Numbered from the stretch's first letter, positions 7,750 through 64,000 are shown. The stretch: DNA of 64,000 bases from Eledone cirrhosa (GCA_964016885.1 OZ024748.1:40176001-40240000); one strand, 5' to 3'. The notes: generated by a model from the sequence alone, not told the origin. Numbers and translations: made by a program.

Positions 7750-8256
7750 CTAGTAAAAGTGAGAAAATAAAACATAAGTTACTGGCGAAAAATAATATAT
7801 TGTTACATGAGAGTGGGTTGAAAAGTCCATAGACTGATTATGAAGGAGTGATGCTAAAGCTGTGAAATCTTGCCTGTATTAATTTCAACTCTTCTTAGTA
7901 ATAACTACATTGTTTCTTTCCAAGGACTATGTTGAAAAATAAACCTCATTTGGTCATTCCATGAGAGTATCTTGGTCAGACTGAACTATTCAGCCAACTG
8001 TCGCAAACATATGTATGTGTATGTGTGTGTGTGTGTGTGTGTGCGTGTGTGTGTGTATATATATATCCTGTCTCTATATTTTGTACTCTTGAAGAAGGGC
8101 TAAAGCCTGACACATTCGACTTTCTTTCCCCTTTTCCATATAAAGCACAAAACTAATTTTTTGTACCTCTGCTTTGTCATTTCCTTGAACTATATATATA
8201 TATATAAAGAATGAATAATAACAGGTAGACATCATAAAAAGGTAATTTATTCCGTG

Positions 8257-8368
8257 TGCTTACAAGTGTTTCCACGGTGGTACTGCAGCCTAGTTATGCT
8301 ACGTGCAAATTCACAAGTACTTGCAGAACTCAAATATCCAATGCTGTGACCACTGTTTCCTCAGAGCA
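8257..8368 (-). ncRNA. Hammerhead-like motif in the Penelope 3' repeat (long stem II insert)
   Basis: Sense strand reads TGCT-CTGAGGA-aacagtggt..67 nt..accaccgtg-GAAAC-actt-GTA-AGCA. Confidence 0.6.
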
Positions 8369-8861
8369 GAATGGTAAAATGTACAATGTAAATACCCTTA
8401 AGTGAGGTTGTTGGGGAAGATAGAGTAGAAAAAGAAGAGAGAAAAGTAGGGAAGAGGGAGAGAGAGAGAAAGATATGCAGGAGTTGGAGAAGTAGGAGAG
8501 AATGGCTTGTAGATATCTTAATCAAAATGTTATGGTAGGGGTTTTATTATACTGGTTACTTTTGGAGAGATGCGTTGATAGTTAAGGTCGGAATTATTTA
8601 TTGCCCCAGAGGGCAGGTTCATAGATGTTGAGAGGGAGGTAGGCCAAAGGCGAGAGAGAGAGAGTGTAATGGATGTAGAGAGAGATAGGTAGAGAGGGGA
8701 CAGATAAAGTTTGTGTGGTGAGTGAACTTTGGGTTTGTAGTAGTAATCTAGGAATTGCACTGAGTTACCATGTATAGTGATAAGCAGTGTATTGTCTTGT
8801 AGTGTGGGGGGAAGAGAAGGTTGTTAGCTAGAAAGTGGTGTTATAGTTACGGGTTCGAATG

Positions 8862-10008
8862 TTAAGTTATTTTATAGTGAGAGAATTTAGCTTTTAGTTT
8901 GTGGTTGCAGTATAATGATCGTTCAATTCTATCGTTAAGTAGTTTGTTTTTGGATTTTAATATGTAAAAGAGCTCAAGGTTACATAACCTGCAGTACTTC
9001 AATCCACTCCGGTATGCACTTGCGCTGGAAAGTATATCCCATTTTAAGGTGAACTGTTGGTTGTGTTCACGGAGTTGCCAGGTCTTGTTGGCGAGCGTGG
9101 TCACAAAACGGTGATTCGGATGTTTGATTGAGAATCGATGACGGTACCAGCGAGATTTAAACGATGTGGTGGTAGAACCGATATAATACCATTTCTGGTC
9201 GTTCGATTCAACCGTATTCTTCAATGGACATCTTTCAGGTAGATGCCAGTTACATTCTTTGTTGTGGGTAGCGGGTATACCATGGATAGGTTGTGATAGC
9301 GGTACAGGTGGGTTGTGTAATACCCGTCTCCCATTTAGTGGTTGGGAGGCAGATATTGCGTTCTGCCCATCTGTTATTAAAATGTTTTGTTTTGTAGAGT
9401 TGTTTAATTGCCTTAAGTTAAGTTTTTTTATGTGTGCTTCAAGGTTTGGTGCTGTGGAGTATGATAGTCTAATAGTTTTAGAGTTCAGAATGTTGCTGTA
9501 TTTATGGGAACTAGGGAAGTTTTTGTTGATTAACTTAAAGAATGAAAGAGATAGTTTTGTACTAATCGAGGCATTAAAAATAGGATTGTACCAGATATAC
9601 TTTCTACAACGTGATTTATTTGGTGGTGATCTGCTATTATTAGTATGTCTGGTAGTACTGTGTGTGTGTGCTTGTGTTTTAGTCCCCCGGTTACGCATTC
9701 CTTGATTTCGTGTAGAGCTATGTGTGTTATGGAGATTCCTATCAATGTATTCTATTGTATCCCGGTGGTCGGCATTCCTTAATGCATTATTGTAGTATTC
9801 AGCGTGTTCACTAAAAATATCAGAGTTAGACGATAGGCGAGAGATTCTAAGAGAAATACTCCGGGGAACTGATTTGATCATGGAGAGTGGGTGGTTTGAG
9901 TTAAAGTTAATATACGTATGGTTCTCATTTACCTTGTGGAAGGGTCGTATCTGTCCGGTATTTAAATTAAGAGTTACGTCCAGAAAGTTTACTACTTTAA
10001 GATTGTAT
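8862..10008 (-). pseudogene. Penelope RT thumb + GIY-YIG endonuclease fragment
   Basis: NFLDVTLNL, SNHP..IKSVP.SIS.R, IWYNP.F, YYIGST, LKWDIL, CRLC.LE motifs. Confidence 0.88.
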
Positions 10009-10021
10009 TTGTATGCTCTAA

Positions 10022-10149
10022 ACTCCCGCTTCTACTAGCCCTCGCCCCCCCCCCCCCCTCCCTCTACTTCACGAGGGCATGGCGGTCAACCGCCCCAATA
10101 CCTACATCATGCGGCCAAACCTCTCTCTCTCCCCCTCCCTCTCTCTTAG

Positions 10150-10210
<61 letters not shown>

Positions 10211-13200
10211 ATAGAAATCACTTCGCCAAATTTCATTGCATTGCTGTTCCCCCCACAGTAATCATGTAACGTAATGTACATATTTTTCTTTCATCTCTAC
10301 CTCCACACTTCTATTTTGTATCCAGTCCAAATAGCCAATCTATTGCTAAAACAAATCTGCATTTTTTGTTATCATTAATTGTTAGATACGAGAGTTTTTG
10401 TTGTATTGAACAGAACAAATCTTGTATTTTTGTTAATCGCTTGTTAAATACAAGGACCTCATTCAATCATTACCTTCTAGCTAGCTACCCAACACCCCTC
10501 CCTCCCGCCCCCACACACCACCATTGTTATTACGTGGACCAATCATAAGCCAGAGCCCCCACGCATCACCATTATTATTATTACGCGGACCAATCATAAG
10601 CCAGAGGCCTATACTATCGCTTGCCTGGTTGCCTTTCAGTATATGATGGATGGATGGACTGCGGAATCCTGGAGAGTGGAGGAGAGAGAGAAAAATCTGG
10701 ACGCTCAGCGACAATGCCAAAGATAAAGACAAATTCACCTCGTGGACGAGAATGCGAGCACTCCTCATTGTTTCGACCGCGGACGGCTAACATAACCCCA
10801 TCGCCCACAACCCCCAAACGCAATCCAAAACTTCAGAGTTGGTACCATAAATGTAGGCACCTTAAAGGGTCGCGCTAACGAGGTTGTAGAAATGCTTGAA
10901 CGTAAGGAGGTCGATGTTTGTTGTATTCAAGAGACCAGATGGAGGGGTGGGTCTGCTAGATTCATTGAGGGTAAAAAACGATGTTATAAGCTTTTCTGGG
11001 CGGGAAACGACGATGGGCTGGGTGGAGTAGGAATCATGGTAGCAGAAAAGTGGGCAGATAAGATAATAGACGTAAATAGAGTGAACGACAGAATAATTAA
11101 AATAAGACTTGTCCTCAATAGAACTACGGTGACAGTAATATCTGTGTACGCACCCCAATCCGGACTGCCCGGCACTATAAAAGACAGATTCTATGAGACA
11201 CTGATGCTCACTACCTCCCAAATAACCGACAGTGACTATATAATTATCGCAGGCGACCTAAATGGTCACGTTGGACAACATTGTGACGGCTACAACGAAA
11301 TCCATGGGGGCTATGGGTTTGGTACTAGAAATGAGGAAGGCTCCAGAATCCTGGAATTCTGTGACGCTAATAACCTAACTATCTGTAACACTAACTTCAA
11401 AAAACGTGACAATCACCTGATCACCTATAGATCCAGGGAACACACAAGCCAGGTAGATTATATCCTTACCAGAAGACGTGACAGAGTGTCTGTTGTAAAC
11501 ACTAAATCCCTCCCCCATGAAGAATACACCTCCCAACATAGACTGATAATTAGCGACCTCATAGTCAGGACGAGACGTACTCGACAGCAGAAGAGGACTA
11601 TCCTCAGGAGAAAAATATGGAAGCTAAAGGACCCCATAGCCAGAAATAAATTTCAAAGCATATTACTTGATGCTTTCGACAGTAAGGAAGAGCATTTAGA
11701 GTCGGATAATATAGAGGGACAGTGGGAATTTCTGAAAGCAAACCTGCTGATGGCGACAGACGAAGTCTGTGGCTGGAGCAGGCCTGTAGGCAGGAGGAGA
11801 GTAACATGGTGGTGGAACAGTAGGGTGGAGGGGTCAATTAAGGCCAAAAAGCAGGCTTGGAAAGTATGGTGGGATGGGAGAAGTAGAGAAGACTATCAAG
11901 TGGCCAGGAGGGAGGCTAGGAGACAAGTGTACTTCGCAAGAAGGGAAGCAGAGGAAAGAAAGTTCAAGCATGTTCTACAACGCGAGGACCAAAAACGTGA
12001 GGTGTTCAGGATTGCTAGGCAATGTGTCAAGGAAAACCGTGATATTGTCGGGGAGAAGTGTGTACTTAATGATGACGGCGTACTTGCCATCACCGACGCT
12101 GATAAGAAGGTAGCTTGGAAGTGCCACTATGAAAGGCTACTAAATGAGGAGAATAAATGGGAGAAAGACAGTCTCCCCCACATCGACCCAATAGAGGGAC
12201 CAGCAGTGTTAGTCGAGGGTAGTATAATAAGTAAGGCAATCAAGGATATGAAGACTGGTAAGGCGGCTGGGCCTTCGGAAATAGTTGCTGAGATGCTGAA
12301 GGCATCTGGCTCGGTGGGACACACCTTGGTCACCCGGATAGTTAACCAAGTCGTACAGAATGGGGTTGTTCCGAAGGACTGGCATAGCAGCATCATCGTT
12401 AACTGTTATAAGGGTAAAGGAGATGCCCTAGATAGGAGTAACTATAGAGGCATTAAACTAATCGACCAGGTCATGAAGGCCACGGAAAAAGTAATAGCGC
12501 AACTAATCAGAGAGAGAATTGACCTAGATGAAATGCAGTTCGGATTTGTGTCAGGCAAAAGTACCACAGACGCTCTTTTCATTGTACGTCAACTACAGGA
12601 GAAGTACCTAGCTAAAAGTAAACCCCTCTACTTAGCTTTTGTTGACTTGGAGAAAGCCTTCGACAGAGTCCCCCGTTCCATTATCTGGTGGGCCCTTAGA
12701 AAACTAGGTGTCGACGAATGGCTTGTGAGAGCTATAGAAGCCATGTATAAAGAAACAGTCAGCAAGGTTAGAATTAACAACGAATATAGTGAAGAGTTTA
12801 GAGTAAAAGTTGGCGTCCATCAGGGCTCTGTTCTCAGCCCTCTACTATTTATTATTGCCCTTCAGGCTATAACAGAGGAGTTCAAGACCGGCTGCCCATG
12901 GGAACTCCTATACGCAGACGACCTTACACTCATAGCTGAATCAATGGCCGAGCTAGAGAAGAAATTCCAAACATGGAAGCACGGCCTAGAATCAAAAGGC
13001 CTTAAAATTAACCTGGCTAAGACTAAAGTTCTAGTTTGTAGGAAAGAAAATAAGGCGGCGGTCCCTTCCGGGAAATGGCCATGCTCAGTGTGTAGGAAAG
13101 GCGTAGGTAGAAACTCCATTTTATGTCCCAAATGCAAAGTATGGGTGCATAAAAGATGTAGTGGGATCACAGGTAAGCTAACTAAGAACTTAGATTTTAC

Positions 13201-14260
13201 ATGTGGGCGGTGCTCTGGTGCAATAAGTAGCAGCGAGTGCCCACAAAATACTAACTCTTTCAATTGCGCAGAGGGCTCTATAGAAATAGTGGACAGCTTC
13301 CGTTACCTGGGTGACAAAATCAGCAGTGGGGGAGGGTGCTCCGAAAGTACAGTAGCTAGAGTCAGAACTGGATGGAAAAAGTTCAGAGAGCTTATACCAC
13401 TATTAGCCGCTAAAGGGTTCTCCCTAAAAATGAAAGGCAGGTTGTATGATGCCTGCATACGAACAGCAATGTTGCATGGCAGTGAGACCTGGGCATTGTG
13501 CGCAGAGGATATACGCAGACTAGAGAGGAACGAAGCTTGCATGCTCCGCTGGATGTGTAATAGTAATATACGTGAACGGCAAAGCATAAACGAACTAAGG
13601 GAAAAAATTAGAAATAAGAGGGATCAGATGTTGTTTACTCGAGAGAAGGCTACGTTGGTACGGACACGTGATGCGCATGAAAGTCGATAGCTGTATAACA
13701 AAGTGCAGGGCAATAAAGATAGACGGTAGCCACGGAATAGGCAGACCTAGAAAATCCTGGGACGAGCTGATAAACTCCGACCTCACACACTTACACCTCT
13801 CCAAGACAATGTCACTGGACCGAGACCTTTGGCGGTACTCAGTAATAGAGAAGACCCGCCTTACCTAAATACATAGTAAAACCTACTACAGCCAGTAGGC
13901 ATCTCTAACAAAATACACCCCCGTCCCACCACCCACACCCCCATCCACACCACCCCCTCCTATGTAAAGTTATGTTGGTGCCATAACATCCAGGCCGAAA
14001 CAAATGAGATCGTGTAGGTGTCACGACAAAAAAACACACAGTCCACGCTGTAATATGGCCGTGTAGGCAACACGGTAAAAACCTCCCAGTCCCACACTGT
14101 AAATGTGGTTGGTGCTAGGAAGGGCATCCAACTGTAGAAAACCTGCCAGACAGTCCTATGCGAGCAAGACAATCACTCTTGCCTCAAGTGGGAATACCCC
14201 CGTCCAAACCCATGCAAGCGTGGAACACGGACGTTACACGTTGATGATGATGATGATGAT
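10022..14260 (+). mobile_element. RTE-clade LINE, subfamily A, copy 2, full length with (GAT)n tail
   Basis: 932-aa ORF with APE motifs (QETRW, SVYAP, GDLNGH, DYIL, HRL) and RT motifs (QFGF, DLEKAFD, GVHQGSVLSP, YADD, YLG); 3' UTR ends in gatgatgat. Confidence 0.95.
10714..13868 (+). pseudogene. RTE ORF with two frameshifts
   Basis: ATG 10714 is 178 nt from 10892 (195 nt in copy 1, so 17 nt shorter). An extra A near 13602-13607 shifts RLRWYGHVMRM...GRPRKSW into another frame that ends at 13868. Confidence 0.85.
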
Positions 14261-15088
14261 GTTATTTTTAGACCCAGTTCACTAGAAGATTTTCTAATAT
14301 TTTTCCGTAGCCTTTCAAGATTTTGGTTATTCAAGTTATTAACTAATAAGAGCCCGTCATCTCTGTATATCCCCCCCTGTAGATTACTAAATTTCACAAC
14401 CAACAGTTCACCTTAAAATGGGATATACTTTCCAGCGCAAGTGCATACCGGAGTGGATTGAAGTACTGCAGGTTATGTAACCTTGAGCTCTTTTACATAT
14501 TAAAATCCAAAAACAAACTACTTAATGATAGAATTGAACGATCATTATACTGCAACCACAAACTAAAAGCTAAATTCTCTCGCTATAAAATAACTTAACA
14601 TTCGAACCCGTAACTATAACACCGCTTTCTAGCTGACAACCTTCTCTTCCCCCCACACTACAAGACAATACACTGCTTATCACTATACATGGTAACTCAG
14701 TGCAATTCCTAGATTACTACTACAAACCCAAAGTTCACTCACCACACAAACTTTATCTGTCCCCTCTCTACCTATCTCTCTCTACATCCATTACACTCTC
14801 TCTCTCTCGCCTTTGGCCTACCTCCCTCTCAACATCTATGAACCTGCCCTCTGGGGCAATAAATAATTCCGACCTTAACTATCAACGCATCTCTCCAAAA
14901 GTAACCAGTATAATAAAACCCCTACCATAACATTTTGATTAAGATATCTACAAGCCATTCTCTCCTACTTCAACTCCTGCATATCTTTCTCTCTCTCTCC
15001 CTCTTCCCTACTTTTCTCTCTTCTTTTTCTACTCTATCTTCCCCAACAACCTCACTTAAGGGTATTTACATTGTACATTTTACCATTC

Positions 15089-15200
15089 TGCTCTGAGGAA
15101 ACAGTGGTCACAGCATTGGATATTTGAGTTCTGCAAGTACTTGTGAATTTGCACGTAGCATAACTAGGCTGCAGTACCACCGTGGAAACACTTGTAAGCA
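15089..15200 (+). ncRNA. Hammerhead-like motif, inverted Penelope copy
   Basis: Stem I tgct/agca, CTGAGGA 15093-15099, GAAA 15185-15188, predicted cleavage triplet GTA 15194-15196. Confidence 0.6.
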
Positions 15201-15392
15201 CACGGAATAAATTACCTTTTTATGATGTCTACCTGTTATTATTCATTCTTTATATACACTCCGGAATACTGAAGGATCAGGAACTAAGTTTCTTCAACAA
15301 TTCTTCCATAACTCATAGAGTAACCTCTTACCGTACGTCAACCATATCCAGTGTAGTAATTAACCATTACTACATCTTGGATAATCCTATAC

Positions 15393-15427
<35 letters not shown>

Positions 15428-15831
15428 CAGTCAGCTAAAAGGTTAATACGCTCACGAGGAAAGACTGATGCTAAAGCTGTGAAATCTAGCAGCTTTTAAA
15501 CTTTTCAGTCAACCCTAGTACATGACGAGACAAATTCCAGTTAAGACATGGAAGAAGATCACAATCTATTTTTCCTTTTCCTGTCTATGTGTTCAACTCT
15601 TTCGCTGTCAAGTTGCCACCAAAAACCTTCCCTAGTTTTTTTTTTGTTTTGTTTTTTCATAATAAAAAACTTTATTTTAAACTGTATATATTTATTTAAA
15701 AACCTTCCCTCATAATTCTATGTAAGAACCTTTGTTAAGTTATCCTCAAAAGACCAACTTAATAACAAGGAAGTTAGTTATATTATTAAACACCTACAAA
15801 TTCTTGAATTAAATCAGAAAACAATACAGTT

Positions 15832-16519: not shown

Positions 16520-18545
16520 ACCCACACTGTAGAGTGGTCATGTTGCTGTCATGATAAAGAGTGCTCAGTCCACACTGTAAAGTGGTCATGTTGGTGTCAG
16601 GATAAAAAGTGCCCAGTCCACACTGTAAAGTGGTCATGTTGGTGTCAGGATAAAAAGTGCCCAGTCCACACTGTAAAGTGGTCATGTTGGTGTGATGATA
16701 AAAAGTGCCCAGTCCAAACTGTAAAGTGGTCATGTAGATGTCACGATAAAAAGTGCGCAGTCCACACTGTAGAGTGGTCATGTAGGTGTCACGATAAAAA
16801 GTTCCCAGCCCACACTGTAAAAAGGTCATGTAGCTGTCACAATAAAAAGTGCCCAGTCCAAACTGTAAAGTGGTCATGTAGGTGTCATGATAAAAAGTGC
16901 TCAGTCCACACTGTAAAGTGGTCATGTAGGTGTCACAACAAAAGGCACCCAGTCCACACAGTAAAGTGGTCATGTAGCTGTCACGATAAAAAGTGCCCAG
17001 TCCACACTGTAAAGTAGTCATGTTGGTGTCACGATAAAAAGTGCCCAGTCCACACTGTAAAGTAGTCATGTTGGTGTCACGATAAAAAGTGCCCAGTCCA
17101 CACTGTAAAGTGGTCATGTAGCTGTCACGATAAAAAGTGCCCAGTCCACACAGTAAAGTAGTCATGTAGCTGTCACGATAAAAAGTGCCCAGTCCAGACT
17201 GTAAAGTAGTCATGTAGCTGTCACGATAAAAAGTGCCCAGTCCACACTGTAAAGTAGTCATGTAGCTGTCACGATAAAAAGTGCCCAGTCCACACTGTAA
17301 AGTAGTCATGTTGGTGTCACGATAAAAAGTGCCCAGTCCAGACTGTAAAGTAGTCATGTAGCTGTCACGATATAAAGTGCCCAGTCCACACTGTAAAGTA
17401 GTCATGTTGGTGTCACGATAAAAAGTGCCCAGTCCACACTGTAAAGTGGTCATGTAGGTGTCACAACAAAAGGCACCCAGTCCACACAGTAAAGTAGTCA
17501 TGTAGGTGTCACGATAAAAAGTGCCCAGTCCACACTGTAAAGTAGTCATGTTGGTGTCATGATAAAAAGTGCCCAGTCCACACAGTAAAGTAGTCATGTA
17601 GCTGTCACGATAAAAAGTGCCCAGTCCACACGGTAAAGTAGTCATGTAGCTGTCACGATAAAAAGTGCCCAGTCCACACTGTAAAGTAGTCATGTTGGTG
17701 TCACGATAAAAAGTGCCCAGTCCAGACTGTAAAGTAGTCATGTAGCTGTCACGATATAAAGTGCCCAGTCCACACTGTAAAGTAGTCATGTTGGTGTCAC
17801 GATAAAAAGTGCCCAGTCCACACTGTAAAGTGGTCATGTAGGTGTCACAACAAAAGGCACCCAGTCCACACAGTAAAGTAGTCATGTAGGTGTCACGATA
17901 AAAAGTGCCCAGTCCACACTGTAAAGTAGTCATGTTGGTGTCACGATAAAAAGTGCCCAGTCCACACTGTAAAGTGGTCATGTAGGTGTCACAACAAAAG
18001 GCACCCAGTCCACACAGTAAAGTAGTCATGTAGGTGTCACGATAAAAAGTGCCCAGTCCACACTGTAAAGTAGTCATGTTGGTGTCACGATAAAAAGTGC
18101 CCAGTCCACACAGTAAAGTAGTCATGTAGGTGTCACGATAAAAAGTGCCCAGTCCAGACTGTAAAGTAGTCATGTAGCTGTCACGATAAAAAGTGCCCAG
18201 TCCACACAGTAAAGTAGTCATGTAGCTGTCACGATAAAAAGTGCCCAGTCCAGACTGTAAAGTAGTCATGTAGCTGTCACGATATAAAGTGCCCAGTCCA
18301 CACTGTAAAGTAGTCATGTAGGTGTCACAATATAAAGTGCCCAGTCCACACTGTAAAGTGGTCATGTAGGTGTCATGATAAAAAGTGCCCAGTCCACACT
18401 GTAAAGTGGTCATGTAGGTGTCACAACAAAAGGCACCCAGTCCACACAGTAAAGTGGTCATGTAGGTGTCACAACAAAAGGCACCCAGTCCAGACTGTAA
18501 AGTGGTCATGTAGGTGTCACAACAAAAGGCACCCAGTACTCACTG
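16520..18545 (+). repeat. 48-bp minisatellite, ~42 units
   Basis: Unit cccagtccacactgtaaagtggtcatgtaggtgtcacgataaaaagtg; matches the 16-aa periodicity of the 676-aa ORF. Confidence 0.95.
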
Positions 18546-18712
18546 TAAATGAGGTTGGCGTTAGGAAGGGCATCCAGCTGTAGTAACCAAGCCAAAATCA
18601 GTTCTACATCAGCAAGATATGGTCACCTGACCTGGCATTCCTCACAACAGTACAACTCGTCTAACCCATGCTAGCATGGGGAAATGGACATTAAACTGTG
18701 ATGATGATGATG
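18546..18712 (+). mobile_element. RTE-type 3' end / SINE tail capping the 48-bp array
   Basis: gttggcgttaggaagggcatccagctgtag ... ctaacccatgctagcatgg ... gatgatgatgat, as in the RTE-A 3' UTR. Confidence 0.75.
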
Positions 18713-26616: not shown

Positions 26617-26880
26617 ATTAGAATTGGTGCTCTGAAATAGCGATGTATATATGAATGTATATATAGTATATTTGGCAATATACTGTATGCTTAATTAAAA
26701 GCATTTTGAAGACCTTGCGCCATTATTTTAAAGTAATGACTATGTCACTTCTTTTTTCAACAAACAAAAGAAGTAAGTGACATAGTCACTAATTTAAAAT
26801 AATAGTGCAAGGTCTTCAAAATGCTTTTAATTAAGCATACAGTATATTGCCAAATATACTATATATACATTCATATATAT
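26617..26880. mobile_element. Fold-back remnant of the ribozyme-repeat family (lacks the hammerhead)
   Basis: ~110-bp inverted arms; shares gctctgaaatagc and aaagcattttgaagacc with 47685-48390 and 61466-64000. Confidence 0.75.
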
Positions 26881-41182: not shown

Positions 41183-41226
<44 letters not shown>

Positions 41227-41541
41227 AAAGTTTTATTTAAAATTGTTGGGTTACAACGAGTAAATATTTTATAACTGATATAAAGCACTCAACAAATTTT
41301 GGAGTAGATATACAATATTAAACAAATGGAAACTATATTTATAAAACCATATTTATTTCATTATACATATTTCAGGGATACCATATTAAAAATATGGCAT
41401 GCCTTCTTCAGATAAAATACAATATATAAGCAGTTTTATAAATAAATTTGACGTACCATAAATATTGAACAACTTCCATTTAAGAGGTTGGTTTGGTAGT
41501 AAATATGGTTTTATAAATATAGTTTCCATTTGTTTAATATC

Positions 41542-41581
<40 letters not shown>

Positions 41582-42118: not shown

Positions 42119-42179
<61 letters not shown>

Positions 42180-42494
42180 CGAAACGGCTTGAGCTCAGCT
42201 GTCGGGGTCTTACTGGTTCCTATTACCCACTCTACTACCTCAAGTATTGAGTACTTTGGTGCGTTATGGTCCACCTGGTTCCTTACCACATTTCCTTCGT
42301 TATATATATATATATATATATAATGTACTAAAGTATATATATATATATATTATATATATATATATATATAATGTACTAAAATATATATATATATATATAT
42401 ATAATGTACTAAAGTATATATATATATATATATAATGTACTAAAGTATATATATATATATATAATGTACTAAAGTATATATATAATGTACTAAA

Positions 42495-47433: not shown

Positions 47434-47795
47434 GTATATATATATAATGTACTAAAGTATATATATATATATATAATGTACTAAAGTATATATATATATA
47501 TATATATAATGTACTAAACTATATATATATATAATGTACTAAAGTATATATATAATATACTAATGTATATATATATATAATGTACTAAAGTATATTTATA
47601 TATAATGTACTAAAGTATATATATATATATAATGTACTAAATATATTTATATATATAATGTACTAAAGTATATATATATATAATGTATTTTGCAATACAC
47701 TTTATGCTTAATTAAAAGCATTTTGAAGACCGTAAGCTATTGTTTTAAAGTAGTGACAAATTCACTCACTTTGATCTCAGCAAACAGGGGAGATA

Positions 47796-47839
47796 AGCCG
47801 ACATGACATGTTTCGCTTTTGTTGAAGCTTATCAAGGCC
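47796..47839 (-). ncRNA. Type I hammerhead ribozyme motif (inverted copy, U3:A8)
   Basis: Exact reverse complement of 48180-48223. Confidence 0.8.
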
Positions 47840-48179
47840 AACTAGCCCGCCTGTCTACTGAGATCAATGATGTTATATTCTTATAGAAATCTAGTAAATA
47901 ATCAGGAGCTGATTATGCAGAGCGGTTGTTGGTCAGGCAGAAATTAAAAATTAGAATTGGAGCTCTGAAATAGCAATATATATATGGATGTATATATAAT
48001 GTATTTTGCAATACACTTTATGCTTATACATCCATATATATATTGCTATTTCAGAGCTCCAATTCTAATTTTTAATTTCTGCCTGACCAACAACCGCTCT
48101 GCATAATCAGTTCCTGATTATTTACTAGATTTCTATAAGAATATAACATCATTGATCTCAGTAGACAGGCGGAGTAGTT

Positions 48180-48223
48180 GGCCTTGATAAGCTTCAACAA
48201 AAGCGAAACATGTCATGTCGGCT
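48180..48223 (+). ncRNA. Type I hammerhead ribozyme motif with U3:A8 core variant
   Basis: GGCC-TTGATAA-GCTT caacaa AAGC-GAAACA tgtca TGTC-GGCT, enclosed by an 18-bp helix ttgatctcagtagacagg/cctgtttgctgagatcaa. Confidence 0.8.
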
Positions 48224-48548
48224 TATCTCCCCTGTTTGCTGAGATCAAAGTGAGTGAATTTGTCACTACTTTAAAACAATAGCTTACGGTCTTCAAAATG
48301 CTTTTAATTAAGCATAAAGTGTATTGCAAAATACATTATATATACATCCATATATATATTGCTATTTCAGAGCTCCAATTCTAATTTTTAAAGTATATAT
48401 ATATATATATATATATATATAATGTACTAAAATATATTTATATATATAATGTACTAAAATATATTTATATATATAATGTACTAAAGTATATATATATATA
48501 TAATGTACTAAAGTATATATATATATATATATAATGTACTAAAGTATA

Positions 48549-49860
48549 CGAGGGGGGATCAAAAAGTTTGCGGAATTTTTCAGAAAATATTCTATTTTTC
48601 AAAAAATATGATTTGCCTTCAATTTATTTTTCTACAGAGTTGCCATCCAGGTCAATACACTTGACAAGGCGATGCTTCAACTTTCGTAAGCCGTCTCTAA
48701 AGAAAGTTGAAGGCTTTGTTCGAAGCCATGTGTTGGCAGTGTTTTTAGCTTCTTCAACACCACTAAAACGGGTTCCTTTTAGCATTTCTTTGAGTTTTGG
48801 AAAGAGGAAAAAGTCTGATGGGGCTAAATCTGGACTATAAGGTGGGTGAGGAAGCACTTCCCATCGAAATTCTCGAAGAACTTCTTTTGCAACCCACGCA
48901 GAATGCGCTGGTGCATTGTCATGGTGAAACAAGATCCCACCATGAAGTTTCCCTTTTCGTTTCTTGACTAATGCCTCTTTCAGCTTCCTTAAAACATGTG
49001 CATAGTAAGCTCCTGTCACAGTTCATTGACCTTCAAGATAATCTATTAGTATCACACCATCTGAATCCCAGAAAATGGTGGCCATCACTTTTTGATCCGA
49101 CTTTTGAGATTTGAACTTGATTGGCCCCGATGATCCACGTGGAAGCCACTGTTATGACTGCTGTTTGGATTCAGCATCATACTGGTAGATCCAGGTTTCA
49201 TCTCCGGTGATGATTCTGGTCAGGAAATGCTCTTCATCAACTTCAATTTTGTTTAATATCGTCAAAGACAGATCACTTCGAAGAATCAGCTGATCAGAGC
49301 GCAACGCTTTTGGGACCCATCGCGCTGAAAGCTTGCTTAGTCCTAAATTATCGTGCAGAATTGAATTTGCCGAACCATATGAAATGTCTAGGGACTTAGC
49401 TAACTGATTAACTGTTATTCTTCGATCTTCTTCAATTAAAGTCTGAGCAGCCTCAACGTTTTGGTCATTTTTTGATGTTCCTAGTCTTCCACTGCGATGG
49501 TCGTCTTCAAGGTCGTCTCTCCCTTGTTTGAATCGCTGAATCCACTTGTAGACAGCAGTTTTCTTTGGAGCAGTACTACTGTAAACTCTAACTAAAACCT
49601 CCATAATCTGTGTCCCATTCCATTTGAGTTTCACCAGAAACTTGATATTCGATCTTATCTCAAAATAACTATTTTCCATTGTTCCAAAAAGAGGTTTTTT
49701 AAAGTGTGTCAGTACTGTACAATAGTCCACACATGACTGACTGCAAGTGAGTAAAAGCAAGGTAAACACCCAGTGACAATGTTCTGACATGTTTAATATC
49801 GTTTTAATCTATTTTTTTCTTACTACAATAAAATTCCGCGAACTTTTTGATCCCCCCTCG
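48549..49860 (-). mobile_element. Full-length mariner (DD34D) transposon, 1312 bp, TA target duplication
   Basis: TIRs cgaggggggatcaaaaagtttgcggaattt / aaattccgcgaactttttgatcccccctcg, flanked by TA. Confidence 0.95.
48624..49679 (-). pseudogene. Mariner transposase, 352 codons, two in-frame stops (~49152, ~49025)
   Basis: WVPKAL, TGDETW, HHDNAPAH and YSPDLAPSDF motifs, all in one frame. Confidence 0.92.
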
Positions 49861-51559: not shown

Positions 51560-51594
51560 CCTTTACCGGTTTCGCAGTTCTGCTTTTCAAAAGG
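51560..51594 (-). ncRNA. 35-nt minimal hammerhead motif, U3:A8 variant
   Basis: Minus strand reads CCTT-TTGAAAA-GCA gaac TGC-GAAAC cg GTA-AAGG; stem III is the palindrome ACCGGT. Confidence 0.7.
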
Positions 51595-54036: not shown

Positions 54037-57000
54037 ACTAGCATGGGTTAGACGGGTTGTCCTGTTGTGGGCAGTGTCTGGTCGGCTGACCATGCCTTGC
54101 TCATACAGGAACTGATTTGGCTTGATTTCTACAGCTGGATGCCCTTCCTAACACCAACCTCATTTACAGTGAGTGCTGGGTGATTTTTCGTAGCACCTAT
54201 ACGTCCACTTTACAGTGTGGGCGGGGTGCTTTTTTGCCGTGGCTCCTCCACGACCACCTTGCGGTGGGGGGTGTGGGGGCATATTGTCTATATGCTTCAG
54301 CTTGTACCCATGGGAGGTCGGGTACTCTGTATTACTGCGTGACGCCAGAAGTCACGGTCATGTGTCATTGCCTTTGAGAGGTGTAATTGGGTAAGGTCGG
54401 CTTTTATCACCTCATCCCAGGTCATCTTGGGTCTCCCCAATCCGCGGTTTCCATCAACTTCTAGTGCTCTGCACCTTTTTATGCAGCTGTCATCCTTCAT
54501 ACGCATCACATGTCCATACCAGCGCAACCGCCTCTCCTGCACACAGCATTTGATTCCTCTTATGCTCAGTCTCTCTCTCAATTCATTTATGCTTTGTCGT
54601 TCACGTATATTACTGTTACACATCCATCGGAGCATGCAGTCTTCGTTTCTCTCTAATCTACACAAGTCTTCCACCTTCAGCACCCAGGTCTCACTACCAT
54701 GCAACATTGCTGTTCGGATACACGCATCATACAGTCTGCCTTTCATTCTGAGGGAGAAGCCTTTTGCAGCTCGCAGTGGTAGTAGTTCCCTAAACTTCTT
54801 CCATCCCATTCTTACCCTAGTTATTGTACTTTCTGAACACCCACCTCCGCTGCTAATTCGGTCACCTAGGTAGCAGAAGCTGTCTACTGTTTCTACAGAG
54901 CCCTCCCAGAGATTGGTGGTACTTGTTTCCTGTGGCTGTTTGCTGCTTGCTGTCTCAGCACAGCTGCTGCATGTGAAGCCTACATTCTTAATTAAGCTTC
55001 CTGAGATCCAGCTATATCTCTTGTGTACCCATTGTTTGCATTTGGGGCAGAGAATGGAGTTCCTACCTACACCTTTCCTACATACTGAGCAAGGCCATTT
55101 CCCTGAGGGGATCTGGGTTCTGTTTTCTCGTCTACTTACAAGGACCTTAGTCTTTGTCATGTTGACTTTGAGACCCTTTCTTTCTAGTCCCTGCTTCCAA
55201 GATTCAGCTATGAGTGCGAGGTCATCAGCATACAGGAGTTCCCATGGGCATCCGGTCTTAAACTCCTCCGTTATTGCCTGCAGGACTATGATGAACAGGA
55301 GGGGGCTAAGAACAGAGCCCTGGTGGACCCCAACCTGTACGCTAAATTCCTCGCTATACTCATTGCTAATACTAACTTTGCTGACTGCTCCCCTATACAT
55401 GGCTTGTACCGCTTTCACAAGCCATTCACCTACTCCTAGTTTTCTAAGAGCCCACCAGATTACAGCACGTGGAACTCTGTCAAAGGCTTTCTCAAGGTCG
55501 ACAAATGCCAAGTAGAGTGGCTTACTTTTAGCTAGGTACTTTTCCTGTAATTGCCTCACAAGGAAGAGGGCATCAGTGGTGCCTCTTCCTGGTACAAACC
55601 CAAATTGCATCTCGTCTATTTCCACCCGGTCCCTAATCAACTGTGCTATAACTCTTTCTGTTACTTTCATGACTTGGTCCATCAACTTTATACCTCTATC
55701 TAGTGCATCGCCTTTACCTTTGTAGCAGTTGACAATGATGCTACTGCACCAATCTTTTGGTATGACACCTTCTAGTATTACCTGGTTAACAATACGTGTG
55801 GTTATAGTGTGACCTACAGACCCAGATGCCTTCAGCATCTCGGCAGCTATACCCGATGGACCGGTTGCCTTCCCCATCTTCATATCTTTGATTGCCTTAC
55901 TTACTACGTTGCTGCTGACTTGTACTGCTGGCCCCTCTATAGGGTCTACTTGGGGTAGGGTCTCTTCTTCCCATGCATTCTCCTCATTTAGTAATCTATC
56001 ATAATGACTCTTCCATGCATCTTTCTTCTCAGCACTTGTGAGGGCAAGCTCACCTTTATCATTCCAGATACACTTCTCTCCAATGATATCACAACTATCT
56101 CTGACACACTGCCTCGCAATCTTGAATACCTCCTGTTTCTGGTCCTCACGTTGCAAAACATGCTTGAATTTTCTATCCTCTGCTTCCCTCCTAGCTAAGT
56201 ATACTTGTCGCGTAGCTTCCCTCTTGGTCTCTATGTAATGTACCCTGCTCACCCCGTTCTTCCATTCTTTCCATGCCTGTCTCTTGGCCTTAACTGCTTC
56301 ATCTACCTTATTGTGCCACCACCAAGTCACTCTCCTCCTGCTTGAGGTCTTACTCCAGCCACAGACCTCATCCATCGCCTCTAGTAAATTATTTTTTAGG
56401 AACTCCCAGTTCTCTTCTACATTAAATGTCTCTATCTGTTCTTCTTTACTGTCGTAGGCGTTGAGTAAAATATCTTTAAATCTGTTACTGGTTGAGGGCA
56501 CTTTCAGCTTCCAGATCTTTCTTCTCTAGGTTGGCCTCTGTTTCCATGTTCGTCTAGTTCTGACCGTGAGGTCGCTGACAACTAAGCTATGTTGGGATGT
56601 ACATTCCTCACTAAGGAAGGCTTTTATGTTTACAACCGTCCATCTGTCACGTCCTCTGATGAGGATAAAATCTATCTGACTGGAGTGCTCCCCTGATCTA
56701 TAGGTGATCAGGTGGTTGTCGGGTTTTTTAAAGTTTGTGTTACATATCGACATGTCATTGGCGTCGCAGAATTCTAGAAGTCTGAATCCTTCATTTCTTG
56801 TGCCAACCCCATGGCCTCCATGTACTCTATTGAAGCCGTCGCAGTGTTTACCTACGTGTCCGTTAAAATCTCCTGCGATGATTAGGAAGTCATTGTCGTC
56901 TGTTAGAGCAGTAGTGTGCATTAGGGACTCGTAAAACCTATCCTTAAGTTCGTCTGGCAGCCCTGATTGGGGTGCGTAAGCTAATATTATTGTGGTAATT

Positions 57001-58020: not shown

Positions 58021-58200
58021 AAATATATATATATATATATAATGTACTAAAGTATATATATATATATATATATAATGTACTAAAGTATATATATATATAT
58101 ATATAATGTACTAAAGTATATATATATATATAATGTACTAAAGTATATATATATATATAATGTACTAAAGTATATATATATATATATATAATGTACTAAA

Positions 58201-58239
<39 letters not shown>

Positions 58240-59944
58240 GTACTAAAGTATATATATATATATATATATAATGTACTAAAGTATATATATATATATATAT
58301 ATATAATGTACTAAAGTATATATATATATATATATATATAATGTACTAAAGTATATATATATATATATATATATAATGTACTAAAGTATATATATATATA
58401 TATATATATAATGTACTAAAGTATATATATATATATATATATATAATGTACTAAAGTATATATATATATATATATAAATAATGTACTAAAGTATATATAT
58501 ATATATATATAATGTACTAAAGTATATATATATATATATATAATGTACTAAAGTATATATATATATATATATATAATGTACTAAAGTATATATATATATA
58601 TATATATAATGTACTAAAGTATATATATATATATATATATAATGTACTAAAGAATATATATATATATATACAATGTACTAAAGTATATATATATATATAA
58701 TGTACTAAAGTATATATATATATATAATGTACTAAAGTATATATATATATATATATAATGTACTAAAGTATATATATATATATAATGTACTAAAGTATAT
58801 ATATATATATAATGTACTAAAGTATATATATATATATAATGTACTAAAGTATATATATATATATATATAATATATATAATGTACTAAAGTATATATATAT
58901 ATATATATAATGTACTAAAGTATATATATAATGTACTAAAGTATATATATAATGTACTAAAGTATATATATAATGTACTAAAGTATATATATATATAATG
59001 TACTAAAGTATATATATATATAATGTACTAAAGTATATATATATATATATAATGTACTAAAGTATATATATATATATATATAATGCACTAAAGTATATAT
59101 ATATATAATGTACTAAAGTATATATATATATAATGTACTAAAGTATATATATATATATATAATGTACTAAAGTATATATATATATATAATGTACTAAAGT
59201 ATATATATATAGTGTACTAAAGTATATATATATATATATATAATGTACTAAAGTATATATATATATATATATATAATGTACTAAAGTATATATATATATA
59301 TATATAATGTACTAAAGTATATATATATATATAATGTACTAAAGTATATATATATATATAATGCACTAAAGTATATATATATATAATGTACTAAAGTATA
59401 TATATATATATATAATGTACTAAAGTATATATATATATATATAATGTACTAAAGTATATATATATATAATGTACTAAAGTATATATATATATAATGTACT
59501 AAAGTATATATATATATATAATGCACTAAAGTATATATATATATAATGTACTAAAGTATATATATATAATGTACTAAAGCATATATATATATAATGTACT
59601 AAAGCATATATATATATAATGTACTAAAGTATATATATATATATAATGCACTAAAGTATATATATATATAATGTACTAAAGTATATATATATATAATGTA
59701 CTAAAGTATATATATATATAATGTACTAAAGTATATATATATATATAATGCACTAAAGTATATATATATATAATGTACTAAAGTATATATATATATATAT
59801 ATAATGTACTAAAGTATATATATATATAATGTACTAAAGTATATATATATATAATGTACTAAAGTATATATATATATAATGCACTAAAGTATATATATAT
59901 ATAATGTACTAAAGTATATATATATATATATATAATGTACTAAA

Positions 59945-59983
<39 letters not shown>

Positions 59984-61379
59984 GTACTAAAGTATATATA
60001 TATATATATATATATAATGTACTAAAGTATATATATATATATATATAATGTACTAAAGTATAATATATATATATATATAATGTACTAAAGTATATATATA
60101 TATATATATAATGTACTAAAGTATATATATATATATAATGTACTAAAGTATATATATATATATATATAATGTACTAAAGTATATATATATATATAATGCA
60201 CTAAAGTATATATATAATGTACTAAAGTATATATATATATAATGTACTAAAGTATATATATATATATAATGTACTAAAGTATATATATATAATGCACTAA
60301 AGTATATATATATAGTATAATGTATATATATAATGTATAAAGTATATATATATATATATATATAATGTACTAAAGTATATATATATATATATATATAATG
60401 TACTAAAGTATATATATATATATATATATAATGTACTAAAGTATATATATATATATATAATGTACTAAAGTATATATATATATATATAATGTACTAAAGT
60501 ATATATATATATATATAATGTACTAAAGTATATATATATAATGTACTAAAGTATATATATATAATGCACTAAAGTATATATATATATAATGTACTAAAGT
60601 ATATATATATATAATGTACTAAAGTATATATATATATAATGTACTAAAGTATATATATATATTATGTAACTATAAAGTATATATATATATATATAATGTA
60701 CTAAAGTATATATATATATATATAATGTACTAAAGTATATATATATATATAGTTACTAAAGTATATATATATATATATAATGTACTAAAGTATATATATA
60801 TATATAATGTACTAAAGTATATATATATATATAATGTACTAAAGTATATATATATAATAATGTACTAAAGTATATATATATATATATAATGCACTAAAGT
60901 ATATATATATATAATGTACTAAAGTATATATAATATATAATGTACTAAAGTATATATATATATAATGTACTAAAGTATATATATATATAATGTACTAAAG
61001 TATATATATATAATGTACTAAAGTATATATATAATGTACTAAAGTATATATATATATGTACTAAAGTATATATATATATATATATTATATATATATAATG
61101 TACTAAAGTATATATATATATATAATGTACTACTAAAGTAATATATATATATATATAATGTACTAAAGTATATATATATATATAATGTACTAAAGTATAT
61201 ATATATATATAATGCACTAAAGTATATATATATATAATGTACTAAAGTATATCTATATATAATGTACTAAAGTATATCTATATATAATGTACTAAAGTAT
61301 ATCTATATATAATGTACTAAAGTATATATATATATATATATAATGTACTAAAGTATATATATATATATAATGTACTAAA

Positions 61380-61414
<35 letters not shown>

Positions 61415-61465
61415 GTACTAAAGTATATATATATATATATAATGTACTAAAGTATATATATATAT

Positions 61466-64000
61466 ATTGGAATAAATGCTCTGAAATAGCGATATATATG
61501 TGAATATAGACATAGAATATTCGAAAATATTCTGTATGTTTATAATAAACATTTTGAAGACCTAATCGCTATAGAATAGAATACGTCACGTATTACAATT
61601 AGATTCTCGATAAAAGCAAGGGAAGTAATCTACGCGTTTCATTCTTGTTAGAAATCATCAGGACTACATATCCAGTGCTTTTATCGAGAATGACACAGCT
61701 AGAGACTTATAGAATACTTAGCTGTGTACAGGAACTGGTTTGAAAGAGCGGTTGCCGGTCCGGCAGAAATTAGAAATTGGAATAAATGCTCTGAAATAGC
61801 GATATATATGTGAATATAGACATAGAATATTCGAAAATATTCTGTATGTTTATAATAAACATTTTGAAGACCTAATCGCTATAGAATAGAATACGTCACG
61901 TATTACAATTAGATTCTCGATAAAAGCAAGGGAAGTAATCTACGCGTTTCATTCTTGTTAGAAATCATCAGGACTACATATCCAGTGCTTTTATCGAGAA
62001 TGACACAGCACTGGATATGTAGTCCTGATGATTTCTAACAAGAATGAAACGCGTAGATTACTTCCCTTGCTTTTATCGAGAATCTAATTGTAATACGTGA
62101 CGTATTCTATTCTATAGCGATTAGGTCTTCAAAATGTTTATTATAAACATACAGAATATTTTCGAATATTCTATGTCTATATTCACATATATATCGCTAT
62201 TTCAGAGCATTTATTCCAATTTCTAATTTCTGCCGGACCGGCAACCGCTCTTTCAAACCAGTTCCTGTACACAGCTAAGTATTCTATAAGTCTCTAGCTG
62301 TGTCATTCTCGATAAAAGCACTGGATATGTAGTCCTGATGATTTCTAACAAGAATGAAACGCGTAGATTACTTCCCTTGCTTTTATCGAGAATCTAATTG
62401 TAATACGTGACGTATTCTATTCTATAGCGATTAGGTCTTCAAAATGTTTATTATAAACATACAGAATATTTTCGAATATTCTATGTCTATATTCACATAT
62501 ATATCGCTATTTCAGAGCATTTATTCCAATTTCTAATTTCTGCCGGACCGGCAACCGCTCTTTCAAACCAGTTCCTGTACACAGCTAAGTATTCTATAAG
62601 TCTCTAGCTGTGTCATTCTCGATAAAAGCACTGGATATGTAGTCCTGATGATTTCTAACAAGAATGAAACGCGTAGATTACTTCCCTTGCTTTTATCGAG
62701 AATCTAATTGTAATACGTGACGTATTCTATTCTATAGCGATTAGGTCTTCAAAATGTTTATTATAAACATACAGAATATTTTCGAATATTCTATGTCTAT
62801 ATTCACATATATATCGCTATTTCAGAGCATTTATTCCAATTTCTAATTTCTGCCGGACCGGCAACCGCTCTTTCAAACCAGTTCCTGTACACAGCTAAGT
62901 ATTCTATAAGTCTCTAGCTGTGTCATTCTCGATAAAAGCACTGGATATGTAGTCCTGATGATTTCTAACAAGAATGAAACGCGTAGATTACTTCCCTTGC
63001 TTTTATCGAGAATCTAATTGTAATACGTGACGTATTCTATTCTATAGCGATTAGGTCTTCAAAATGTTTATTATAAACATACAGAATATTTTCGAATATT
63101 CTATGTCTATATTCACATATATATCGCTATTTCAGAGCATTTATTCCAATTTCTAATTTCTACCGGACCGGCAACCGCTCTTTCAAACCAGTTCCTGTAC
63201 ACAGCTAAGTATTCTATAAGTCTCTAGCTGTGTCATTCTCGATAAAAGCACTGGATATGTAGTCCTGATGATTTCTAACAAGAATGAAACGCGTAGATTA
63301 CTTCCCTTGCTTTTATCGAGAATCTAATTGTAATACGTGACGTATTCTATTCTATAGCGATTAGGTCTTCAAAATGTTTATTATAAACATACAGAATATT
63401 TTCGAATATTCTATGTCTATATTCACATATATATCGCTATTTCAGAGCATTTATTCCAATTTCTAATTTCTGCCGGACCGGCAACCGCTCTTTCAAACCA
63501 GTTCCTGTACACAGCTAAGTATTCTATAAGTCTCTAGCTGTGTCATTCTCGATAAAAGCACTGGATATGTAGTCCTGATGATTTCTAACAAGAATGAAAC
63601 GCGTAGATTACTTCCCTTGCTTTTATCGAGAATCTAATTGTAATACGTGACGTATTCTATTCTATAGCGATTAGGTCTTCAAAATGTTTATTATAAACAT
63701 ACAGAATATTTTCGAATATTCTATGTCTATATTCACATATATATCGCTATTTCAGAGCATTTATTCCAATTTCTAATTTCTGCCGGACCGGCAACCGCTC
63801 TTTCAAACCAGTTCCTGTACACAGCTAAGTATTCTATAAGTCTCTAGCTGTGTCATTCTCGATAAAAGCACTGGATATGTAGTCCTGATGATTTCTAACA
63901 AGAATGAAACGCGTAGATTACTTCCCTTGCTTTTATCGAGAATCTAATTGTAATACGTGACGTATTCTATTCTATAGCGATTAGGTCTTCAAAATGTTTA
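61466..64000. repeat. 310-bp tandem array with one hammerhead motif per unit; ~1.75 units inverted (61466-62009), then at least 6.4 units on + running off the window
   Basis: ctggatatgt recurs at 62011, 62321, 62631, 62941, 63251, 63561 and 63871. The only unit difference I noticed is G>A at 63162. Confidence 0.95.
62019..62061 (+). ncRNA. Minimal type I hammerhead ribozyme motif (first of 7 on +, every 310 bp; minus copies at 61625-61667 and 61935-61977)
   Basis: GTAGTC-CTGATGA-tTTCT aaca AGAAt-GAAAC gc GTA-GATTAC. Predicted cleavage after 62055; stem III is the palindrome ACGCGT. Confidence 0.88.

Follow-up and report, generated by a model that had tools for sequence, protein, structure and literature searches.

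Insertion-site anatomy in an Eledone cirrhosa genomic window supports the proposed mobilisation of hammerhead retrozymes by Penelope-like element enzymes

We analysed a window of 64,000 nucleotides from Eledone cirrhosa (GCA_964016885.1 OZ024748.1:40176001-40240000). The retrozymes in this window were probably inserted in trans by a TA-targeting Penelope-like element (PLE), probably of the Hydra type, through its reverse transcriptase (RT) and GIY-YIG endonuclease. They are likely PLE passengers because they occur as mirror-image pairs in which one end is about 30-50 nt longer than the other, which is the PLE footprint. The passenger idea itself is already published: PLEs were named as the likely mobiliser of metazoan retrozymes in 2020 (Cervera and de la Pena, PMC7229834), and retrozymes were argued to be non-autonomous PLE derivatives in 2026 (Li, Clavereau, Pollet, bioRxiv 10.64898/2026.07.22.740005). 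What is added here is insertion-site anatomy, drawn from five loci of one window plus one sequencing run. It constitutes independent evidence, given that an inverted arm and a one-ended tail mark the enzyme and not the ancestry of the inserted sequence. The features discussed below are as follows.

8201..10020, minus strand: left arm of the putative Hydra-clade PLE, 3' part, with RT thumb, linker, GIY-YIG endonuclease and 3' UTR; outer end in (TA)n
8862-10031: endonuclease-bearing open reading frame (ORF) of the PLE, within the left arm
10021..14261, plus strand: RTE-like LINE inside the PLE left arm, with APE endonuclease, RT, PHD-like finger and (GAT)n tail; bounds approximate
14262..14394, minus strand: 5' part of the PLE left arm, which carries the YRDD RT motif and is cut short at the inversion junction
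14395..15256, plus strand: PLE right arm, a 5'-truncated inverted copy with the end of the endonuclease and the 3' UTR
15089..15200, plus strand: PLE hammerhead-like motif whose stem II is atypical (85 nt); cleavage predicted after 15196
Core at 8364, minus strand: mirror copy of the PLE hammerhead-like motif
15257..15396, plus strand: possibly a long tail by which the PLE right arm reaches a TA tract, or else ordinary flanking DNA
26617..26783, minus strand: retrozyme subfamily B26, left arm, with hammerhead-cut-homologous start and long-site end (+162)
26775..26879, plus strand: B26 right arm, start +28, short-site end +133
41224..41499, minus strand: long arm of the fifth locus; its minimal type I hammerhead has the core at 41411 and a predicted cleavage site after 41362
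41500..41545, plus strand: short inverted arm of the fifth locus, spanning +6 to about +51 relative to the cut, with its outer end in (TA)n
47679..48026, minus strand: retrozyme C47 left arm, ~1.1 units of 316 bp, core at 47835, short end in a TA minisatellite
48025..48391, plus strand: C47 right arm of ~1.16 units, with a hammerhead core at 48184 and cleavage predicted after 48219
61466..62009, minus strand: retrozyme D61 left arm, 1.75 units of 310 bp, cores 61971 and 61661
62007..64000, plus strand: D61 right arm, at least 6.4 tandem units, cores at 62025 + k x 310, outer end beyond the window

The initial annotation had described four loci as head-to-head inverted pairs with their 3' ends outward, joined at truncated 5' ends, and arm alignments bear this out at all four. 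The inverted layout of the PLE stands as described, but the junction maps to 14394/14395, and the ~4.2-kb RTE LINE interrupts the left arm. A fifth locus with the same layout, at 41224-41545, was absent from that annotation; it is either a PLE tail fragment or a retrozyme monomer of another family. Arm identity is 99.2% over 865 nt for the PLE (8201-9065 versus 14395-15256), 94% for B26, 99% for C47 (3 differences over 310 nt) and 100% for D61, whose right arm carries one substitution across 6.4 units. The arms overlap by 2-9 nt at the junctions: the AGC microhomology at 62007-62009 in D61 is exact, as previously noted, C47 has a TA microhomology at 48025-48026, and in B26 the stretch shared by the arms at 26775-26783 is 4-9 nt long. 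Near-palindromic junctions, with 5' ends 20, 28 and 32 nt apart, occur at all three retrozyme loci, as is known for PLEs too (PMC3846280). All five hammerhead-family loci are inverted versus none of the eight RTE copies in the window (Fisher p=0.0008; 3/3 versus 0/8 for the retrozyme loci, p=0.006), these comparisons being post hoc, from one window and with four of the loci preselected by the initial annotation. A weak hammerhead match at 51590 without an inverted arm was taken as chance (0.33 expected), and counting it would make the inverted tally 5/6. The inverted pair at 43001-43511 was rejected as a further locus, being internal to a Helitron-like element.

The 310- and 316-bp units are tandem (GC 0.34) and noncoding, with a longest ATG-started frame of 27-30 amino acids, and judged by sequence they are non-LTR retrozymes, with predicted cleavage and putative circles. 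We found nine hammerhead cores in D61 and two in C47, and the predicted hammerhead folds outscore shuffles (z -6.3 for D61 and -7.6 for C47). The Rfam HH9 model matches C47 at E 0.002-0.004, below the gathering score, and does not match D61. The C47 core at 47835 is a U3-A8 variant, known from PLE hammerheads (PMC4209133). B26 is truncated and keeps no core, which corrects the initial annotation. Predicted activity should be read with the finding that 8 of 9 predicted elements failed to cleave in the experiments described in the main text of Li et al. 2026. Rfam miRNA matches in the window were set aside as inverted arms and TA repeats. The units resemble the metazoan non-LTR retrozymes described in the main text of PMC7229834, which are noncoding tandem units of 150-450 bp with low GC (34% here) and one type I hammerhead per unit with a short palindromic helix III; a U-U at the base of helix II occurs here as in axolotl HHR_Amex2. 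Those elements have long target site duplications (TSDs) when these are present, and inverted arms or tails are not described in that main text. The C47 and D61 arms both cross the head-to-tail unit joint without ORF sequence upstream. Given that the arms exceed one unit and read through intact hammerheads, the template would have been an uncut multimer or a religated circle, which are equally compatible with the arms seen here.

The outer ends carry the second part of the footprint. The initial annotation had the three short loci ending at nearly the same terminus (...TTCAGAGC..CCAAT; ...CAGAGC..CCAAT). This is true of one outer end per locus, while the partner end falls 29 nt earlier in B26 (where the left arm is the long one) and 47 nt earlier in C47 (left-arm end versus right-arm long end). 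The long ends spread over 12 nt (+162, +165 and +172-174 from the hammerhead cut), that of the D61 left arm lying at +165 in a TA minisatellite. Together, the ends fall into two zones, about 125-139 and 162-174 nt past the cut and 26-47 nt apart overall (26-31 nt in D61, from the window and public run X2). PLEs have a tail at one end only, of 30-40 bp in the text of PMC8557442 and 31 bp in PMC3846280, next to an inverted 5'-truncated copy, and the tail has been mapped to two RT start sites in the work described in PMC11167929. The end asymmetry of the short loci matches the PLE tail with its two RT start sites. At the fifth locus, the long arm runs to about 138 nt past the cut, where it meets (TA)n. 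The offset between its arms is 88 nt, which exceeds the published PLE tail length.

The flanks say less about the enzyme. The initial annotation had the outer ends abutting TA, and 6 of the 7 visible ends do run into a TA tract (8/9 with the fifth locus); the exception is the PLE right end at 15256, unless this arm extends 140 nt to the TA tract at 15397. Given that no close full-length PLE relative was found (best protein relatives 29-49% identical), 15257-15396 is left between tail and flank; its open frame is unlike the Hydra N terminus by eye. TA flanks are not diagnostic of PLE insertion, since TA also lies within 6 nt of 6/9 LINE/SINE ends with a (GAT)n tail and TA targeting is common here to RTE, SINE and Helitron-like elements, which makes the TA argument for a shared machinery weaker than first held. 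As the retrozyme ends sit in TA repeats, TSDs are unreadable. LINE-type tails would have spoken against a common layout, and no retrozyme end in the window carries a (GAT)n tail in sense orientation. Together with the inverted 5'-truncated copy and the one-ended extension, this supports the earlier proposal that the short repeats are non-autonomous PLE passengers.

The same two end zones appear in public run X2, with 10 contigs at the short and 7 at the long site, although this run (630 contigs, most about 60 nt) may be the source of the window itself and its independence is unsure. Loose ends lie behind 62504 in 10 contigs (short site, into TA), behind 62519 in 6 (long end of a sister subfamily) and behind 62535 in 1 (into TA). 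Some of the short-site ends could be slippage of an internal TA run. One 5' end (62395) is joined directly to TA, showing that not every copy is inverted, and no strand-changing joint was found among the X2 joints listed, with 6 of 38 loose ends displayed. Runs X1, X2 and X3 list no joint other than the head-to-tail unit joint, and the 6/38 loose ends displayed have no common exit into other sequence. In a run search with 29 words, 20 of the 24 rows listed (16 studies, 17 organisms) have a containment of 0.76-1.00; four runs were taken further, and the other rows carry no weight here. No RNA run stands among the rows listed, which has no bearing on expression. In X21, a Hi-C run sampled at about 1 in 100, no read matched, and no weight is placed on this result. 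Pattern scans for the retrozyme gave no match in metagenome contigs (two scans) or viral contigs (one scan). In two other runs, the unit forms a perfect, closed contig that lacks flanks, and trace contamination is the most likely source; that such contigs, from runs filed under other organisms, reflect a circle passing between hosts has only the slimmest of chances.

A hairpin near the end zones is conserved, with 40/40 cells paired and double changes in 2/8 pairs, and 14 of 500 shuffles scored as high in this comparison of three subfamilies. An invariant 13-nt motif lies alongside it around the predicted start sites. A pseudoknot between two invariant motifs was dropped, since minimum-energy folds favour other pairings. 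By extension from in vitro work on PAc, the Poseidon element of Anolis, as described in PMC11167929, the PLE endonuclease would nick both strands in AT-rich DNA, and each 3'-OH would then start cDNA synthesis at one of two internal sites, which lie about 125-139 and 162-174 nt past the hammerhead cut, with the hairpin and the 13-nt motif as the likely recognition signal. The two cDNAs would stop at truncated points and join via microhomology, or one would fold back, and the result would be two inverted arms, only one of which has a tail. In a bolder version, which we consider rather unlikely, retrozymes are RNA parasites without sequence kinship to their helper. The Hydra-type PLE would recognise the hairpin module by its shape, start twice on the same circular or multimeric RNA, at two fixed sites and from each of the target strands, and continue through the hammerhead joint. 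If this were true, the 310-nt circle would offer a minimal, defined substrate on which PLE second-strand synthesis could be solved. With two start zones and a conserved hairpin on an RNA of 310 nt, a direct in vitro test is simple. As every part is already known and the sample of five loci is small, the contribution lies in confirmation and a test substrate and does not amount to a new system.

Under a cis-acting origin, the repeats would be left over from the terminal repeats of an autonomous PLE that is itself not seen, and unequal crossover would have multiplied them locally along the satellite-birth route suggested in the 2026 preprint (main text); they would then not be independent passengers. 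Truncated PLE ends leave an identical footprint, the length of B26 and of the 41.2-41.5 kb locus would suit such stumps, the near-identity of the D61 units is what recent local expansion would give, and 24 of 57 Xenopus families in the main text of Li et al. 2026 are homologous to Repbase transposable elements, 21 of which are PLEs. We nevertheless regard this origin as unlikely, given that the C47 and D61 arms cross the head-to-tail joint with no ORF upstream and that the public runs list the unit joint and no common exit among the 6/38 loose ends displayed.

That an RTE LINE mobilised the repeats, the inversions arising by L1-style twin priming on one RNA, is very unlikely. RTE copies are abundant, young (two of them share 96% protein identity) and likewise inserted in TA, and in unit coordinates the start of the C47 right arm is no more than 4 nt away from the left arm's outer end, as twin priming predicts (PMC2912911). 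However, this abutting pattern occurs at 1 of 4 loci with both ends visible, so that pure twin priming fits C47 only; none of the eight RTE copies is folded back, and few 5' inversions occur among elements that L1 moves in trans (PMC2912911). LINEs are not characterised by two fixed internal end zones, and local SINE-like partners carry the (GAT)n tail that the retrozyme ends lack. DNA-level fold-backs (repair or amplification chimeras) or assembly artefacts would account for the identical D61 arms and the near-palindromic junctions with 20-32-nt offsets, the junctions being known here from assembled sequence. We consider them highly improbable, because the arms stop at element ends with unmirrored flanks, the B26, C47 and PLE arms have diverged and the RTE LINE sits in one PLE arm only. 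Fold-backs are also confined to hammerhead-family elements: a local scan of the masked window (E<1e-10) returned D61, C47, B26, the 41.2-41.5 kb locus and a Helitron-like internal repeat. A pure short fold-back model was rejected, as at C47 and D61 the supposed copy is longer than its template.

The preferred reading, insertion by a PLE, draws on a clade present in the window: judging from its motifs, the large element at 8201-15256 is a truncated Hydra-clade PLE split by the RTE insertion. Its C-terminal GIY-YIG domain lacks CCHH, with CxxC and CxH flanking conserved E and N; alignment with relatives gives invariant YIGST, C340, C343, E346, N359, C368 and H370, and the Pfam GIY-YIG match (E 6e-4) is under the cut-off. 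The N-terminal RWK/RWR and DKT/DKS motifs are present in 5 relatives, the window copy being 5' truncated. The Hydra clade, as described in the text of PMC8557442, shares the GIY-YIG without CCHH, the CxxC/CxH, the (TA)n target and the inverted 5'-truncated copy, carried by Penelope-13_HM. The 3'-proximal hammerhead of that clade lies 47-100 nt from the element end and may have a counterpart here in a hammerhead-like core with stems I and III 60 nt from the arm end. The window PLE differs in a degenerate CxCX5C linker (second Cys replaced by Trp, intact in 5/5 relatives) and the 85-nt stem II, and by eye it belongs to another family than Hydra-1_Obim, with a different hammerhead context. Its hammerhead-like fold is no better than shuffles (z +1.36), with 0.33 such hits expected per shuffled window. 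Given that blastn found no significant sequence in common between the retrozymes and the PLE (14590-15400; best E 0.11), in line with the earlier statement of no identity beyond the ribozyme core, this PLE is not identified as their partner. Two retrozyme motifs had no match in the supplement text of Craig 2021, where line breaks can hide matches.

As in the Chlamys non-autonomous elements, e.g., MRC1 (text of PMC8557442), and in the pLTR-driven trans-mobilisation of foreign sequence in Adineta (PMC3846280), noncoding or foreign sequence would have been moved here by PLE enzymes. The moved sequences described in those cases are often head-to-tail multimers and have 3' sequence in common with the autonomous partner, of which no match was found here. 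PAc likewise nicks and extends both strands in AT-rich DNA, with two internal RT starts past the hammerhead that define the tail and uncut RNA as template. Its starts lie in an AC-rich stem-loop inside the ORF, whereas those in the noncoding unit flank an AT-rich run beside the hairpin. Trans-mobilisation of a retrozyme is outside the scope of the PAc study as set out in its text. Inversion and tail footprints are absent from the main texts of the 2020 and 2026 papers, whose supplements may show insertion structures; in the latter main text, "tail" and "mollusc" do not occur and "inverted" appears only in a reference title. Li et al. 2026 reached the same conclusion from co-occurrence and pLTR homology and phylogeny, mostly in vertebrates, whereas our evidence is insertion anatomy, with no pLTR homology found.

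Self-comparison of the window bore out the initial annotation, which had described four loci as inverted pairs: every pair is joined head-to-head, with the 3' ends of its two arms pointing outward. These loci, together with a fifth one recovered by a hammerhead scan and a LINE that interrupts the Penelope-like element (PLE), are as follows.

8201-15256: PLE; arms 8201-9065 and 14395-15256, 99.2% identical; the left arm extends to 10020, is interrupted by an RTE-like LINE and continues at 14262-14394 with a YRDD motif
10796-13690: 964-aa frame of the RTE-like LINE in the PLE left arm, with APE, RT and PHD-like domains; its (GAT)n tail lies at 14243-14260
26617-26879: short-repeat locus B26
41224-41545: fifth locus; minimal hammerhead, 45-nt inverted arm, TA minisatellite at both ends and an 88-nt end offset
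47679-48391: short-repeat locus C47, unit of 316 bp
61466-64000: short-repeat locus D61, unit of 310 bp

The three short loci are homologous (84% between C47 and B26; 75-81% for D61 over the common segment). The AGC microhomology reported earlier at the D61 junction was found again as an AGC overlap, and the junctions of C47 and B26 overlap by TA and by 4-9 nt, respectively. In B26, the arms (26775-26830 versus 26720-26770) show four clustered differences and then none over the next 70 nt, as if each arm derived from a different unit.

Under relaxed criteria, a search of the entire window for hammerheads gave the D61, C47 and PLE motifs, a weak match at 51590 and the fifth locus, whose sequence is unrelated to the other units, against a background of 0.33 hits per shuffled window. 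When the masked window was scanned for fold-backs, only the hammerhead-family inverted loci and the internal repeat of one other element appeared. The latter (about 42700-43560), which we take to be Helitron-like, is nonautonomous, lies between TA flanks, shows CTAG after a 3' hairpin and has a 146-bp inverted repeat in its interior. No fold-back was found in the eight copies of RTE, the local LINE family with (GAT)n tails, in the window. Inversion thus occurs at 5/5 hammerhead-family loci versus 0/8 RTE copies (P = 0.0008; 3/3 versus 0/8 in a narrower set, P = 0.006), a post hoc comparison in which four loci came from the initial annotation; the unit and motif searches that set the compared loci made no use of inversion. 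The inverted feature is genuine. One minus-strand RTE copy carries about 3.7 nearly identical tandem 539-bp monomers in its 5' region (3180-5200).

The D61 and C47 units are noncoding (GC content of 0.34; longest ATG frame of 27-30 aa) and contain predicted type I hammerheads. In D61, the core is the usual C3-G8 one, stem III is a 2-bp palindrome and a U-U pair stands at the base of stem II, while the hammerheads of C47 (48184 and 47835) have a 4-bp stem III and a U3-A8 core variant, known from PLE hammerheads as described in part of PMC4209133. Both fold far better than shuffled sequences (z of -6.3 for D61 and -7.6 for C47). For the circular units, z was -4.7 (D61) and -5.7 (C47) over 40 shuffles, and the antisense values were likewise low. 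Given their noncoding nature and these predicted folds, the units fit non-LTR retrozymes as portrayed in the sections of PMC7229834 consulted. A hairpin just 5' of the short end (62450-62476 in D61, with homologous sites in C47 and B26) is conserved among the three subfamilies, with differing 4-nt loops and double changes at two of its pairs, a weak signal from three subfamilies only. The tail, i.e., the extension at one end only, carries an invariant 13-nt motif that, by eye, pairs with upstream sequence as a second helix.

The PLE protein matches relatives bearing the RWK, DKT, CxCX5C, CxxC and CxH marks, which define the Hydra clade in PMC8557442 (section 11 and supplement alignment). According to the same parts of that source, this clade shows (TA)n insertion and hammerheads and includes an octopus family as well as a family that has an inverted copy truncated at its 5' end. 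The hammerhead-like motif of our PLE (15089-15200; mirror at 8257-8368) has a stem II of 85 nt, far exceeding that of the Hydra hammerheads listed there. As the initial annotation had noted, the retrozyme units share no significant similarity with the PLE 3' region, and neither does the fifth locus. The window's repeats may resemble those of octopus DNA.

A common terminus had been proposed for the short loci. This holds for the long ends, which, in nt from the predicted hammerhead cut, fall at +162 in the left arm of B26, +165 in the left arm of D61 and +172-174 in the right arm of C47, but not for the partner short ends, which fall at +133 in the right arm of B26 and +123-129 in the left arm of C47. 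B26 and C47, where both ends are visible, thus have one long and one short end each, 29 and 47 nt apart. The TA-rich flanks also stood in part: they occur at 8/9 visible ends (background, 15% of positions) but also at 6/9 (GAT)n tails, and are therefore genuine but common to (GAT)n-tailed LINE/SINE insertions. A 23-29-bp TA minisatellite, present in several blocks within 40442-61467, is a sink that receives RTE, SINE-like, mariner-like and retrozyme insertions. At 48550-49810 on the minus strand, transposase frames are, from their translation, presumably mariner-like. The minisatellite also contains a 125-bp non-TA insert (42175-42300) with a short GC-rich hairpin at its start, and a 48-bp repeat (16522-18549; 42 copies) is related to SINE-like sequence at 14010-14170 and 54038-54269.

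We compared one D61 unit (62250-62559) with 4 of 24 listed public sequencing runs. Run X2, which may be the source of the window itself, held 630 matching contigs (353 at 99% identity or more) with very high summed depth, showing that the family is at high copy there. Among 6 of its 38 loose ends, 10 contigs exit at 62504 into TA, corresponding to the short site, 6 exit at 62519 with the long end of a sister subfamily, and 1 exits at 62535 into TA, so that the two end zones are seen again; 1 contig has TA immediately preceding 62395, a noninverted 5' end, and 2 loose ends resemble small indels. Some of the TA ends could be slippage. No strand-changing joint appeared among the joints listed for X2, where most contigs are about 60 nt. 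Runs X1 and X3 are assigned to organisms other than that of X2, and each contains a single closed contig of 340 nt (depth of 10-12, without variants or flanks) that is identical to the unit; most simply, this reflects traces of the true host's DNA or RNA, probably through contamination or diet.

The initial reading of the short repeats as passengers of Penelope machinery is supported by the inverted 5'-truncated arms and the one-ended tail, and we consider trans-mobilization of the retrozyme units by a PLE probable. Twin priming by RTE is quite improbable: the C47 right arm starts ≤4 nt from the outer end of the left arm, as in the pattern described in part of PMC2912911, but such an adjoining start occurs at only 1/4 loci. 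In unit coordinates, the 5' ends of paired arms are separated by only 20, 28 and 32 nt (P of about 0.009, post hoc), which suggests fold-back; the simple form of that model does not work for C47 and D61, however, and we regard DNA fold-back or an artifact as the most remote of the alternatives. Because arms of 1.1 to >6.4 units extend through intact hammerheads, either a circle or an uncut multimer served as template, or D61 expanded afterwards; that the units are the remnant of an unseen PLE combined with local expansion is unlikely.

PLE trans-mobilization of retrozymes is largely anticipated in print, having been proposed in PMC7229834 and stated in the title of a preprint from 2026 (Li, Clavereau, Pollet) that argues from co-occurrence and pLTR phylogeny and whose main text, in the portions consulted, does not discuss tails or inversions. 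Within the open-licence literature searched by title or passages, with the preprint and PMC7229834 covered by their main texts, we found no report of the footprint on retrozymes. The footprint anatomy offers independent evidence on the open question of the retrozyme mobilizer.

PLE insertions typically comprise an inverted 5'-truncated copy and a 30- to 40-bp tail at one end (parts of PMC8557442 and PMC3846280), and palindromic junctions as well as trans-mobilization via pLTRs are also reported (PMC3846280). By analogy with such insertions and with PAc, the Poseidon element of Anolis studied in vitro, the retrozyme units would be primed twice, with one priming for each strand and the short and the long zone as start sites, and the two cDNAs may then join through microhomology. 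The retrozyme unit is a small RNA substrate open to test. In the sections of PMC11167929 covering purified PAc, both strands are nicked and extended in AT-rich DNA, synthesis begins internally on the RNA, at two sites separated by the length of the tail, and the main template is uncut RNA.
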